Of a DNA stretch of 64,000 nt, positions 25,887 through 62,579 are shown piece after piece. How positions within the stretch are numbered: the first letter of the stretch is position 1; every line of letters starts with the position of its first letter. Source of the DNA: an uncultured Clostridia bacterium (GTDB lineage Bacteria > Bacillota > Limnochordia > DTU080 > RSA5). The DNA is taken from positions 17,727 to 81,726 of the forward strand of contig CAYRIY010000003.1 in NCBI GenBank assembly GCA_964424335.1, written 5' to 3'. A program made the position numbers and the translations under genes. The notes under the pieces are model-generated. The model ran no database searches, was not told where the DNA came from, and worked only from the letters and a program-made list of their open reading frames with translations.

Positions 25887-26357
<471 letters not shown>

Positions 26358-26545
26358 TCTTATCGTCCCCGTGCCTAAGCGCACAAACGTCTATTTGACG
26401 CTCCCAGTCGTCTTCATGCGGTCATAGAGGAATGTCTTTGTGAGCGCCCGATCTTTTCGGCACGGCCGAGCCGCAAGGCGGACGAAAGGCCAAGCGGGCC
26501 GGCGTCTCTAGCCCTATTTGGGCATGAGGTGGGCCGCATGACAGG

Positions 26546-26668
26546 CGGATTCTCTAAGGAGTCACTCAGCTCGCGGCCCGACTTTGTCGGGCCGGCCAAG
26601 CCACGATCGGATGAAAATCCGCGGGGCGTCAAGTGGGGACGGCAGCCAATCGGATTTTTAAGAGGAGG
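26546..26668 (+). promoter_or_regulatory. copy A of a 123-nt paralogous leader element ending in the accC SD
   Basis: Aligns position-for-position without gaps to 47649..47771 (~82% identity); contains a CGGAU-GAAA-AUCCG hairpin, an internal direct repeat CGGATTYTNTAAGRR at both ends, and AAGAGGAGG at the 3' end. Confidence 0.7.
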
Positions 26669-26675
26669 ACTGTCG

Positions 26676-28019
26676 TTGTTTGAAAAGGTGCTGATCGCCA
26701 ATAGGGGCGAAATCGCTCTGCGCGTGATCCGGGCATGCAGAGAACTCGGCATCGAGTCGGTTGCGATTTACTCGGAGGCTGACCGAGATTCACTCCATGT
26801 CATGGCCGCAGATGAAGCGATCTGCGTCGGACCGGGCCCGTCGAGCGGTTCCTACCTCAACATTCCAAACATCATAAGCGCGGCGGTCTTGTCCGGGGCG
26901 GACGCAATACATCCCGGTTATGGGTACCTTTCGGAGCGGGCGCACTTCGCGGAGATTTGCGAAACACACGGCATCAAGTTTATCGGCCCCTCGGTCTTTG
27001 CGATCGAGCAGATGGGAGACAAGGTGACGGCAAAGCGGACCATGGCTCAAGCAGGGGTCCCCGTCATGCCTGGCAGCCTTGAGCCGGTGGAGTCGGACGA
27101 TGAGGCGATCGCGCTTGCCGACGAAATCGGTTATCCTGTCATCGTCAAGGCATCCGCCGGCGGAGGCGGACGAGGCATGAGGCTGGCGAGAAGCCGGACC
27201 GAGCTCGAGAGGGTGCTGGGACCGGCTCGGACCGAGGCAGGCGCGGCGTTTGGCAGCGATGCGGTCTACATCGAGAAGTATCTCGAAGAGCCCCGTCATG
27301 TCGAGATTCAGATCTTGGCCGACGAACATGGCAACATCGTCCACCTCGGCGAGCGCGAGTGTTCGATCCAACGACGCCACCAGAAGCTGATCGAGGAGGC
27401 CCCGTCGCCGATCGTGGACAGCGCTTTGCGAGACGCGATGGGCAAGGCCGCCGTGCTTGCGGCTCAGGCGGTGGGGTACGCGAACGCGGGGACCGTGGAG
27501 TTTCTCGTTGATCGTGAGAAGAATTTTTACTTCCTCGAGATGAATACGAGAATCCAGGTCGAGCACCCCGTCACGGAGTGGGTGACAGGCGTCGATCTCG
27601 TCAAAGAGCAAATGCGCGTCGCATCAGGGGCCAAGCTGTCGATGAGGCAAAAGGACATTCGATTGCGAGGGCATGCGATCGAGTGTAGGATCAACGCGGA
27701 AGATCCGGAGCGTGGCTTCATGCCCTCGCCGGGGACCGTACGATTTTATCACGCTCCCGGTGGGATCGGCGTGCGTGTCGACAGCGCCTTGTACACGGGC
27801 TGCGTGGTGCCGCCTTACTACGATTCCATGCTGGCCAAGCTGATCGTCCATGCAGAGGACAGACAGTCCGCGATCGAAAAGGCTTTGGCCGCGCTTGACG
27901 AATTTCGCATCGATGGCATCAATACAAATGTCGCCTACCTCAAGGAGATCCTCGATCACCCGAAGTTTCGCGAGGGCGAGCTCTCCACCAACTTCATCGA
28001 TCGCCACATGGCTCGGTAG
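26676..28019 (+). CDS. accC: acetyl-CoA carboxylase biotin carboxylase subunit
   Basis: MFEKVLIANRGEIALRVIRACRELGIE N-terminus, ATP-grasp motifs; TTG 6 nt after GAGGAGG; unusually separated from accB by 318 nt. Confidence 0.9.
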   Translation: MFEKVLIANRGEIALRVIRACRELGIESVAIYSEADRDSLHVMAADEAICVGPGPSSGSYLNIPNIISAAVLSGADAIHPGYGYLSERAHFAEICETHGIKFIGPSVFAIEQMGDKVTAKRTMAQAGVPVMPGSLEPVESDDEAIALADEIGYPVIVKASAGGGGRGMRLARSRTELERVLGPARTEAGAAFGSDAVYIEKYLEEPRHVEIQILADEHGNIVHLGERECSIQRRHQKLIEEAPSPIVDSALRDAMGKAAVLAAQAVGYANAGTVEFLVDREKNFYFLEMNTRIQVEHPVTEWVTGVDLVKEQMRVASGAKLSMRQKDIRLRGHAIECRINAEDPERGFMPSPGTVRFYHAPGGIGVRVDSALYTGCVVPPYYDSMLAKLIVHAEDRQSAIEKALAALDEFRIDGINTNVAYLKEILDHPKFREGELSTNFIDRHMAR

Positions 28020-32803: not shown

Positions 32804-32829
32804 TGGTATAATATAAACGACTTTAGGAT

Positions 32830-33500
32830 AGGTGGTGCAGTATCCTAGTCAGACTTCGGCCTTTGAAGACGGGCCTAAAAATCCGTCGCGGGCACATCGA
32901 TGAAGTCCCTGGTGGTGGCCATCGACGCCCAGTCGGGGGTTGCTGCTGGGGGTTAAGGTGATGGGGCGATCTACAATGGCATGTAGGCGTTGACCCCGTC
33001 TCCGCGGAGACCCACGTCCGTGGGGAACCGCTTGCGTATCGTGCTTCGTGGTTCGGGCGCAAGCGGAGAACTACGGCTTGGGGTTAAACCTGCACGCGAT
33101 GCAAGTCGACAGGTCGGAGGTTCGGACTTGTCGCAAGTGTTGGGTGCAGTGTAGCCTGCCTTGAGTGGCGGGGGTGGGATAGCAGGTATCAGCTCGCTTG
33201 CTTCCATGGCCAGGGAGAAAGTGAGTCCTTGCTGCTTGAAACCCTTACTGCAAAAGAGGCTAGAAGGTTTTGAAGTCTGTCGAGGAAAACTCCTAGGCTG
33301 TTCCCTTGCGGGAGGCCTTGCGGGGATTACGGTGTGGTCTGAGTGGCAATCCAGCCTTGCCGTCGGTGACGCGGCAAAGTGGCCGGAAAGGGGAAACCGC
33401 CGAGGACGGTGACGTCGCGGAGGGCCGCTGGGAAAACCTGCTGGACCTTAAGCCACAATCTTTACTCGCAAGGCTGCCACCTATGCCGTTTTTTCTATTG
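32830..33500 (+). ncRNA. ole: candidate OLE (ornate, large, extremophilic) RNA
   Basis: ~860-nt gap between ispA and dxs with no credible ORF, dense GC-rich helices and GNRA-like loops, ending in a T-run near 33490; ispA-ole-(oapA)-dxs is the described OLE locus; boundaries approximate. Confidence 0.5.
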
Positions 33501-47604: not shown

Positions 47605-47648
47605 AGCATACCTCTACGAACGTCTACATAGATTTCATCGACGGCCAA

Positions 47649-47771
47649 TCGGATTTTATAAGAAGTCACCCACTTGGCCGCCCGACTTTGTCGGTCCGGC
47701 CCAGCCACGAGCGGATGAAAATCCGCGGGTCGGCAAGTGGGGACACATGCTGGACCGATTTTCAAGAGGAG
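47649..47771 (+). promoter_or_regulatory. copy B of the 123-nt paralogous leader element ending in the deacetylase SD
   Basis: Ungapped alignment to 26546..26668; a GCATA-16-CATAGAT forespore-sigma-like promoter lies just upstream (47606..47633). Confidence 0.7.
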
Positions 47772-47779
47772 GTGGGGGC

Positions 47780-53668: not shown

Positions 53669-53835
53669 CCGCGTCCTGCTCACCGCTGGGAGTCGAAAGG
53701 GCTCGGAGCATCCCGAGCCCTTTCGCTGCCTCGTTGTCAGCGCCCGTCACGGGCTAGGCAATGGTTGACAAGCCTTTCCCAATGAGGCAAAATGGGCTTA
53801 AAAGAATCCAATTGCAGACTAACTGCGAGGGCCAT

Positions 53836-53996
53836 AGAGGCGCGAGAGACAAGAGTAGGGTCGTTGAGGCAAGGGCAGCCAGTGAAGCGACCGCGAAAGG
53901 GGATCTCGCCGAAGTTCGACTTTTCGCCCGGTAAAGTCGGACTGGGGTGGCGGCAAAGAGCCGTCGCACTGCCACCGTGATCGGTGGAGCGCTATC
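53836..53996 (+). promoter_or_regulatory. lysine riboswitch (L-box) aptamer
   Basis: L-box blocks in order: AGAGGCGCGAG...AGAGTAGGG, GAAAGGGGATCTCGCCGAAG, GTCGCACTG, GGTGGAGCGCTATCC, all close to the B. subtilis lysC leader. Confidence 0.8.
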
Positions 53997-54026
53997 CCGG
54001 CAGCACGAAAAGGGCTTATAGCGTTC

Positions 54027-61685: not shown

Positions 61686-62408
61686 CTAGCCGATGGGCGG
61701 AGGAAAGGGGCCCCAGACGATGGGGCCTTTTTTCTTAGCGGGAGCATCGGGCTGGCTCTGTGGCTGGGGCGAGACCCTAGAGGACACGCGCTCTTCATTG
61801 ACGTTCTCTTGGCCTTTGTCCGCTTGGTCTATGGTTGACGGGTCGGTGTGGTTAATTGAGCCGTAGAGATCGTGGTACTCCTCGGGAGTGGGCTTCCGTG
61901 TCGCGACGGGTTCGTCGATGCCGACTTCCTTTTCCGGCGAAGAACCGGTGCGAACTTGTGAAATCCGGGTCTCGCCCTTGGCCCAGTCCGATGGCCGCTC
62001 TTGCTCGTCGGATTGCTTATTTGTCCCAGGAGACCTGCGGTCCGAAACGGTAAGTTCGACCGTGATTTGATGCTGGAATTCGCCTGTGATCGGATCGTAT
62101 GTGTGATCTGAGCGGAGTTCACCCAAGGCGACGTCCGCGTGTTGGACCGGAATCGATCCGACGCCGATTCGGCTCGAAAACGGGATGTAAAATCCTTGCC
62201 CGGCGACGTCACGACCGCGAGTGTTGCGGCAGTATACATACGCGCGCACGCCGCCCTTGACCAAGATCCGGTTGGGTCCGTCGAGATCGCACTTGAGCGG
62301 ATCGGCTTCGAGCCGTACATCGAGGACCTCCGCGACGTTTTCGAGGCGACCGCCGCCATGTAGCACGATCGTTGCCCTCTCGATCGGGCGGCTCTCTTCT
62401 ATGCCCAT
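61686..62408 (-). CDS. hypothetical protein with a structured N-terminal domain and a P/Q/E-rich disordered C-terminal tail
   Basis: 240-aa minus-strand ORF with its own intergenic region; no family assigned; its 3' end runs through the terminator hairpin. Confidence 0.5.
   Translation of the reverse strand: MGIEESRPIERATIVLHGGGRLENVAEVLDVRLEADPLKCDLDGPNRILVKGGVRAYVYCRNTRGRDVAGQGFYIPFSSRIGVGSIPVQHADVALGELRSDHTYDPITGEFQHQITVELTVSDRRSPGTNKQSDEQERPSDWAKGETRISQVRTGSSPEKEVGIDEPVATRKPTPEEYHDLYGSINHTDPSTIDQADKGQENVNEERVSSRVSPQPQSQPDAPAKKKGPIVWGPFPPPIG
61705..61735. terminator. bidirectional rho-independent terminator
   Basis: AAGGGGCCCCA-GACGA-TGGGGCC followed by TTTTTTCTT on the + strand; overlaps the last codons of the minus-strand ORF. 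Confidence 0.7.
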
Positions 62409-62579
62409 GGACGTTCTACGCTCCTTGTGAAAAAACGATTGGCTGCCGTCCCCACTTATCGAGCGCTCTCCTAGAGTTACATCTATTCAACCGCGCCAGA
62501 AACTAACATCGTTTTTGGACGGATCGTGCCCTATCATGGGGATATGTCGGCACAACACTTGAAAAAGGAGTGCGTGCAC

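Follow-up and report, generated by a model that had tools for sequence, protein, structure and literature searches.

A Putative IS110-Associated Miniature Module That Targets and Regenerates Ribosome-Binding Sites Ahead of accC and Other Genes of an Uncultured Firmicute

Introduction

What kind of sequence can hold accB and accC 318 nt apart, and why does nearly the same sequence stand before an unrelated gene elsewhere on the same contig? The window analysed here, a 64-kb stretch of DNA (GC = 60.7%), has the gene order spoIIIA-accB-accC-asp23-nusB-xseAB, which together with its protein matches points to an uncultured Limnochordia-like Firmicute. In it the gene for the biotin carboxyl carrier protein, accB (EAMKLMN motif), has its last base at 26357, and the TTG of accC is at 26676 (MFEKVLIANRGEIA). 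A first-pass annotation of this DNA had given the same distance of 318 nt and had called it abnormal, and the spacers of 37-79 nt that we found in relatives bear this out. It had also proposed that the 3' part of the gap, together with a second copy before a PdaB-like deacetylase gene, is a structured leader controlling the ribosome-binding site (RBS) by alternative pairing, in the manner of a riboswitch, a thermosensor or a protein-titrated leader.

On the evidence of sequence comparison we favour, with a probability of about 0.7, a different reading: the leader before accC would be one unit, with its 5' linker, of a ~105-nt, lineage-specific and recently amplified MITE-like repeat, mobilised in trans. 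The unit would be non-autonomous and tied to an IS110-family insertion sequence (DEDD recombinase, bridge RNA) that is present in the same metagenomes. Such a module would target ribosome-binding sites and regenerate them, with a secondary effect on expression being possible.

Results

Two Paralogous Copies and Their Remnants in the Window

Aligned without gaps, copy A (26546-26668) and copy B (47650-47772) are identical at 100 of 123 positions (81%, 23 mismatches). They are true ungapped paralogues, as had been reported, although the earlier coordinates of copy B (47649-47771) were 1 nt out of register and yield only 42/123 identity. The similarity of the core (26576-26640 against 47680-47744, 65 nt, 92% identity, E = 7e-21 by blastn inside the 64-kb window) is far beyond chance. 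The parts said to be shared were all recovered, namely the terminal direct repeat, the CGGAU-GAAA-AUCCG hairpin, the GCCCGAC-UUU-GUCGG hairpin and CAAGTGGGGAC. The reading frames had been described as different in the two copies, which is not correct, the distance from the first base to the start codon being 130 nt in both; the copies are nevertheless non-coding and conserved at the nucleotide level. In fact, four of the six frames are open through the copies as a matter of composition (61% GC DNA), and this, together with repeat periods of 105 and 107 nt, the start MFEKV shared by AccC homologues and the orthologous loci without the element, allowed us to rule out a leader peptide or coding repeat.

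Rfam 15 was scanned at the gathering score over the whole window, while both copies, together with the left end of the insertion sequence (IS) described below, were scanned at E-values up to 10. The gathering-score scan assigned neither copy A nor copy B to a family, and the relaxed scan returned only chance-level matches on both, in agreement with the previous statement that the element belongs to no recognised riboswitch class. Terminators and sigma-70 promoters were looked for inside the element and none was found. Elsewhere, the window contains a full-length OLE (ornate large extremophilic) RNA at 32816-33496 (+, 486 bits), consistent with an anaerobic or extremophile Firmicute host, a lysine riboswitch aptamer at 53827-54002 (+, 104 bits) and a 6S RNA at 686-873 (+, 80 bits). 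An exact look-up of the PdaB-like protein gave no record, and that of AccC a sole match, a Logan contig which begins inside the element.

Table 1. Spacer remnant, repeat units and related fragments recognised in the window.
Feature	Position	Strand	Sequence or supporting match
Putative ancestral accB-accC spacer remnant	26358..26431	+	aligns with the 79-nt spacer of L049 (..GGTCGTCTCTATGTGTTTAAAATAGGAGGACTGTCGTTG)
Decayed repeat unit, ~130 nt	26432..26561	+	covariance model and nhmmer
Repeat unit A, 106 nt	26562..26667	+	TCACTC...GGATTTTTAAGAGGAG; covariance model 117.6 bits over 26546-26672
Left linker of copy B	47640..47665	+	fragment like the 3' end of a unit (GACGGCCAATCGGATTTTATAAGAAG)
Repeat unit B, 106 nt	47666..47771	+	TCACCCACTTGG...CCGATTTTCAAGAGGAG; covariance model 143 bits over 47650-47776
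5'-truncated remnant, 3' module of the unit only	62421..62457	-	AAGTGGGGACGGCAGCCAATCGTTTTTTCACAAGGAG; exact 22-mer in common with unit A

As listed in Table 1, the gap holds more than one unit. The last 8 nt of unit A, in which the 5' strand of helix P1 is degraded, are the SD of accC, upstream of the TTG at 26676. The decayed unit before it has an internal insertion of ~23 nt and is recognised both by the covariance model, at 26445-26501 (23.1 bits, E = 7.6e-6), and by nhmmer (E = 1e-4); its 3' part, GTGGGCCGCATGACAGGCGGATTCTCTAAGGAG, matches the 3' module of the type-2 units described below, and its final part is the linker CTCTAAGGAG. The SD-like TAAGGAG at the 5' side of the copies, previously taken for a decoy of the real SD, is no more than the linker, derived from the target or from the end of a preceding unit. 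Similarly, copy B has a left linker that looks like the 3' ends of unit A and of two metagenomic copies, L029 and L037 (GACGGCAGCCAATCGGATTTTTAAGAGGAG), while the end of unit B supplies the SD of the PdaB-like deacetylase gene (GTG 47780). The minus-strand remnant, whose 22-mer has E = 3.8e-7 and which scores 14.9 bits with the covariance model, immediately precedes the SD and ATG of an ORF at 62408..61686 (-) and provides that SD. The 240-aa product of this ORF gave no Pfam match; its C-terminus is of low complexity and Pro/Gln-rich.

Comparison with Orthologous Loci

In relatives whose AccC is 90, 85 and 74% identical, accB and accC are separated by 79, 68 and 37 nt, respectively; no element is present, and the spacers show the same ..GGAGGACTGTCGTTG junction. 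The 79-nt spacer of L049, the relative with 90% identical AccC, aligns with window 26358-26431, a stretch which terminates in the left half of the original SD (..GGTCATAGAGGA). Its junction ..ATAGGAG/GACTGTCGTTG (a slash marks junctions throughout) corresponds to ..TAAGAGGAG/GACTGTCGTTG in the window, and at the right border of unit A the junction GGAG/GACTGTCGTTG is that of the ancestral site, ..TAGGAG/GACTGTCGTTG. The extra ~236 nt (26432-26667) are therefore placed exactly at the old SD, and the spacing from SD to start codon is unchanged with respect to L049. The 318-nt gap would then be composed of ~74 nt of old spacer and two units, one of them decayed.

Loci orthologous to pdaB (70-79% protein identity) have leaders of 81-102 nt that lack the element, and they keep the helicase-pdaB-pda-GH18 synteny. 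In L001-L006 the ..CAAGGGAGGTAGGGGCGTG junction is kept as well, together with a promoter-like RCATAC-N15-ACATAG motif (L001, L004, L006; window 47606-47634) that all relatives have upstream of the gene and that we take to resemble mother-cell sporulation sigma (E/K) promoters. Since this conserved motif lies upstream of unit B, the unit would fall within the 5' UTR. The empty sites in the relatives read ..TAGGAG/GACTG and ..AAGGGAG/GTAGGGG. Judged from these alignments, a unit was inserted into the pdaB leader and into the accB-accC spacer in this lineage only. A riboswitch, a thermosensor or a protein-titrated leader is difficult to reconcile with the absence of the element from both sets of orthologous loci, in close relatives with 70-90% protein identity.

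The rate of change of the element also argues against a cis-regulatory leader. Between two strains with 99% identical PdaB, it differs at 7 of 132 positions, against 0 of 102 upstream and 7 of 828 in pdaB, that is, the element changes about six times faster than its flanks. When L016 (113-239) is compared with window 47640-47771, the differences in the element include a paired flip from CGG..CCG to CCG..CGG in the two linkers, and a change of the loop from GAAA to GAGA is also among them; the clustering of these differences suggests gene conversion between copies or relaxed constraint.

A Dispersed Repeat Family with a Single Orientation

A count of copies across genomes, put forward by the first-pass annotation as a check, was carried out on metagenomes and returned 30 loci, mostly from JGI samples Ga0182742, Ga0180215 and Ga0180216. 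At least ten further loci carry the element, with L020, L023, L028, L029, L035, L037, L038, L040, L042 and L046 being true copies by nhmmer and the covariance model, and strain orthologues of copies A and B were recovered by the same scan. Several of the contigs start or stop inside the element, as typically happens where an assembly breaks at a repeat. In 185,579 species genomes, the core pattern GGATGAAAATCCN{6,16}AGTGGGGA, within whose reach GAGA-loop variants do not fall, gave 9 matches in unrelated taxa, in which similarity was limited to the pattern and which we attribute to chance; a scan of viral contigs gave 0 matches. A sequence with no Rfam family and no homologue of its core pattern in the species genomes is not what would be expected of a genuine regulatory leader.

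All copies are sense-oriented toward the next gene, and in L020 and L023, where the upstream gene is divergent, the element is still directed at the downstream one. Nine copies terminate 7-12 nt before a start codon, and the unit's 3' end, GGATTTTYRRAGGAG, is the SD of whichever gene comes next. The junctions, compared over 10 or more loci that are without exception sense-oriented, are ..RRGGAG/TCACCC.. on the left and ..RRAGGAG/flank on the right. That the element always adjoins an SD would suit a regulatory leader; yet the downstream genes form no coherent set, coding for AccC, PdaB, PCuAC, ThrRS, two xylose-isomerase-like proteins, FdhD-MobB, a Gfo/Idh/MocA protein and one hypothetical protein. 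Many copies without orientation bias had been named as the outcome that would speak against regulation; the copies are indeed many, but all of them face a gene start. Insertion that is targeted to the SD and specific in orientation explains this bias without invoking regulation.

The layout of the unit, with the linkers in brackets, is [TTTTYRRAGGAG] TCACCCACTTGGCCG-CCCGACNTTGTCGG-CCCGGCCAAGCCACGAG-CGGATGAAAATCCG-CGGGGCGGCAAGTGGGGAC-ACATGCCAGACGGA [TTTTYRRAGGAG], and the period is 105 nt in one type of unit and 107 nt in the second. Copies are 76-100% identical, the cores of L046, L040a and L028 being 100% identical, and some copies form tandem arrays, of three units in L040, of at least two in L020, and in the accB-accC gap itself. 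Identical cores at different loci and tandem arrays are both features that weigh against a regulatory leader. The arrays in L020 (1617-1782) and L040 (1-324, -) are both ordered type 1 (105 nt) then type 2 (107 nt), and this common order hints at a higher-order repeat of 212 nt.

Fold of the Unit

By computed folding, the unit forms a three-way junction (z = -3.4 to -3.6) of helices P1 (GUCACCCACUUGGCCG/CGGCAAGUGGGGAC), P2 (CCGAC/GUCGG) and P3 (CGGAU-GAAA-AUCCG). The structure is real as a property of the sequence, and it speaks in favour of a genuine cis-regulatory leader, i.e. a riboswitch, an RNA thermometer or a protein-binding RNA which controls the RBS by alternative pairing. Covariation in the helices, which had been indicated as a check, was examined on 15 sequences, with copies 76-100% identical: 92% of the cells are paired, and four pairs are changed on both sides, compared with 0.9 in shuffles, a number reached in 4 of 500 shuffles. 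The source of these changes is one type-2 unit and L037, very few sequences, and the outcome is ambiguous. Among the changes which preserve the hairpins are a G-C to A-U replacement at the base of P3 in L037, where pairing is compensated, the GAAA to GAGA change in L016, where the GNRA loop is kept, and two compensatory pairs in P1 of type-2 units. By contrast, P1 is broken in copy A. The wobble pairs (7 G-U against 9 A-C) carry no strand signal.

The switch itself was modelled as well. CUUGGCCG can pair with either of two partners, but the alternative helix is not significant, scoring no better than shuffles, and the switch model was rejected.

Taken with the empty orthologous loci and with the relationship of the element to the ends of an IS110-family IS reported below, these results make a cis-regulatory leader very improbable. 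What holds of the earlier interpretation is that the copies are paralogous, non-coding, placed in a transcribed leader or between cistrons and terminated by a functional SD, with a stable fold possible; regulation is the part that we do not retain. Selection on the folded form of the unit, as RNA or as DNA, may nevertheless have acted, and the substitutions which preserve the hairpins give a hint of it.

Relationship to an IS110-Family Insertion Sequence

The window holds no IS110 transposase in its 64 kb. In the metagenomic locus L040, a 408-aa ORF with the domains DEDD_Tnp_IS110 and Transposase_20 (334-1560, -) ends ~27 nt before the three-unit array, and in L051 (241-1458) a 99% identical transposase gene is followed by ..GGGAGTTATTTTCGAAGGAG and then by one unit; as L040 and L051 could be the same site, this adjacency possibly represents a single locus. 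The ends of the IS were read from a 72% identical relative, P0246, found on ten contigs at about five distinct sites, the closest IS being of the P0241 type, whose true left end was not among the sequences recovered. The IS110-family clade as a whole (L040, L051, L052-L062), in Limnochordia-like metagenomes, is inserted immediately 3' of RAAGGAG.

The left flank of the P0246-type IS always ends in RAAGGAG. The element begins TCCCTCACGGTGCCG and ends ..CAAGATCGGATTTTTAGAGGAG, so that the about five sites read ..RAAGGAG/TCCCTCACGG...GGATTTTTAGAGGAG/flank, with the junctions ..RAAGGAG/TCCCTCAC.. and ..TAGAGGAG/flank; in L054 the end of the IS lies 12 nt before a start codon. Its right end (~28 nt) and the 3' module of the unit end alike, in ...ATTTTYRRAGGAG, and in units A, L029 and L037 the 3' module has the very sequence of the IS right end. 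Over the terminal ATTTTCGAAGGAG the unit and the IS agree at 13 of 13 nt, a match reached in 0 of 2000 shuffles. The left end is ~270 nt long and opens with a unit-like module of ~150 nt: these first ~150 nt show homology with the unit by nhmmer (E = 6e-8 to 7e-6), the module terminates ..GAGAAGGAG/TC, and its P1-equivalent strands differ from those of the unit yet remain complementary. Homology is confined to this upstream module (M) of the left end; when compared with the core IS left end (TCTGGACCC..), the 5' end of the unit shows no significant similarity (p = 0.05-0.16).

Deeper within the left end, a patch reads GTGAAGGAG where the right end is CGAAGGAG, and GTAGAGGAG in two relatives with the right ends CAGAGGAG or TAGAGGAG (YAGAGGAG). 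Because the patch covaries with the right end in three IS relatives, it is a candidate for the left donor guide of a bridge RNA. The stand-alone unit lacks the patch; all it has is CAAGUGGGGAC, a complement of the unit's first bases. A complete two-loop bridge-RNA architecture was looked for in the IS left end by Rfam and by MFE folding and none was found, with no two-loop signal in the MFE folds.

These data bear on another explanation, in which the unit is an independent REP/BOX-like host repeat, of unspecified mobility, that serves as the preferred target of the IS110 element, the module in the IS left end being a captured copy. IS110-family elements are known to target repeats, as IS621 and ISPpu9 do with REPs (PMC11208160, PMC1525189), and the IS abuts units in L040 and L051; moreover, the dissimilarity of the core left end from the unit, and the strong folding of stand-alone units where the IS left end does not fold strongly, would be natural for a host repeat. 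On the other hand, the 72% identical relative inserts at plain RAAGGAG sites with no adjacent unit, so units are not required as targets, and the unit and the IS share both the grammar of their junctions (..GGAG/TC.. and ..ATTTTYRRAGGAG/) and the rule of orientation. In addition, the left-end module accompanies the IS at each of the about five sites, and its divergence exceeds that among the units, which indicates an old part of the IS. We regard the host-repeat explanation as unlikely, though it deserves to be kept in mind.

Discussion

The reading that we prefer, of an IS110-tied unit moved in trans, can be put as a sequence of steps. A recombinase with a bridge RNA would recognise RAAGGAG and insert circularised DNA of the IS or of the unit in one orientation; in the case of the unit, the junction of the circle would read ...ATTTTYRRAGGAG/TCACCCAC.... 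The right end of the element mimics the target, so that the downstream gene would receive a new SD at the original spacing and the insertion would be tolerated. [quoted passage not shown] As RAAGGAG is an SD motif, asymmetric and located just upstream of starts, both the orientation and the position of the copies would follow. One feature does not fit easily: the left and right linkers of one copy often match beyond the 2-nt core, and this is unpredicted by a simple IS110 exchange model. Descent may have run from the IS module to the unit, or else the module may be a unit that the IS has captured.

The matching linkers, specific to each copy, look like target-site duplications, and near the ends of the unit there is a 14-bp imperfect inverted repeat (GTCACCCACTTGGCCG / CGGCAAGTGGGGAC). 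A classical MITE with terminal inverted repeats (TIR), or a palindromic element mobilised by an IS200/RAYT system, with the P1 inverted repeat as its terminal repeats, could therefore be considered. The 3' arm, however, stops ~25 nt short of the right end, the two arms are not both adjoined by the duplicated linkers, and all copies have the same SD-like linker instead of a random duplication. The strict single orientation, for its part, suits a site- and orientation-specific recombinase, and no TIR-type or Y1 transposase was seen in any of the loci, which are short. We consider this the least credible of the explanations, and a very improbable one.

Several properties of known systems support an IS110-tied unit. 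IS110 elements are excised in circular form and integrate into specific targets about a short core; the bridge RNA is encoded in the left end, a 22-bp donor suffices when the RNA is given in trans, and the left donor guide is expected to covary with the donor end (PMC11208160). A mini-IS with the ends only moves when the transposase and the non-coding region are provided in trans (PMC11187229). The IS110 group, with IS621 and ISPpu10 (PMC11208160), is similar to the IS described here in the DEDD_Tnp_IS110 and Transposase_20 domains, in the ~270-nt left end and ~28-nt right end, in the lack of terminal inverted repeats, in the sequence- and orientation-specific insertion beside a short shared core, and in a patch inside the left end whose sequence is that of the right end with the core, which is expected of a left donor guide. 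The differences are that the window has only the non-autonomous unit, with no recombinase gene, and that the target is an RBS consensus instead of a REP.

The closest precedent is MITEPpu9, the registered name of the ssr9 module of ISPpu9 in Pseudomonas putida KT2440; this module has IS-like boxes and an AG core at its borders, occurs as orphans and in tandem, and forms minicircles of its own (PMC12288879). Both are small non-coding modules bounded by boxes that resemble the IS ends, with AG at both junctions, and both insert in one orientation at a specific short target. In our case, the ends resemble those of the IS110-family parent (3' end 13/13, body homologous to the first ~150 nt of the left end), and the unit has the RAAGGAG target and the fixed orientation of the IS, with a short core repeated at the junctions. 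Units are found by the transposase gene (L040, L051), as orphans (the window and 10 loci) and in arrays (L020, L040 and the accB-accC gap); in P. putida, copies next to the transposase gene, orphans and tandem duplicates are explained by minicircles of the module alone made by the transposase. The two modules differ in the target, here the SD-like RAAGGAG and not a REP, with the right end of the unit regenerating the SD of the downstream gene; in the place of the related module, here in the IS left end, upstream of the transposase gene and not downstream; in the copy number, apparently higher here; in the host, an uncultured Limnochordia-like Firmicute; and in the data, which for our unit are sequence only. 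Unlike in a classical MITE, defined by terminal inverted repeats and a duplicated target, the 3' arm is internal (~25 nt) and all linkers are SD-like.

The insertion itself, the distribution of the copies and the relationships of sequence are shown by the comparisons above; mobilisation in trans (by analogy with these systems), guidance by RNA to SD motifs and neutrality for expression are what we infer. Effects on the expression of accC or pdaB, such as lost translational coupling or altered stability or processing of the mRNA, are possible as by-products, and would not be the reason for which the element is there. One may go further and imagine an IS110-family bridge recombinase programmed onto the SD consensus, with the 105-nt modules serving as portable structured 5'-UTR cassettes. 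[quoted passage not shown] We offer this extension as a speculation, a shade more doubtful than the host-repeat explanation.

Other dispersed repeats share part of this behaviour. The BOX elements of Streptococcus pneumoniae are small, dispersed, intergenic and modular, with tandem sub-units (PMC3049150), and BOX, ERIC, Correia and BIME sequences are, like the unit, transcribed together with neighbouring genes as 5' or 3' adducts, with stable RNA folds, and can affect expression (PMC3049150). They differ in that they have no strict sense orientation, do not lie exactly on the SD and are unlinked to IS110 recombinases.

If the preferred reading is correct, a false riboswitch candidate is removed and the odd accB-accC split is explained. 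The case would also reveal, in nature, an element of the IS110 (bridge-RNA) family that comes with a miniature derivative, targets the RBS motif and restores this motif with its right end, so that insertion before essential genes could occur without silencing them and tandem arrays could arise by recreation of the element's own target. For the biology of bridge recombinases, an uncultured Firmicute lineage would show in nature how a target is chosen, how mobilisation can be modular and how mini-elements are moved in trans. For annotation, it calls for caution, as 'leaders' that are well folded, adjacent to an SD and present in multiple copies can be mobile DNA.

Mycobacterial interspersed repetitive units (MIRU) are tandem repeats of 40-100 nt within operons, oriented with the operon and near the downstream start. 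Short ORFs overlapping the flanking stop and start codons have been reported for MIRU, whereas the periods here are 105 and 107 nt, there is no consistent ORF and an SD is supplied.

A last observation concerns the flanks of the IS. L055, L056, L058 and L060 have the right flank TTATCCACAAATCC.. in common and different left flanks, while L053 and L058 share the left flank and differ in the right one; this mixing possibly reflects recombination between IS copies, chimeric assemblies or a second repeat.
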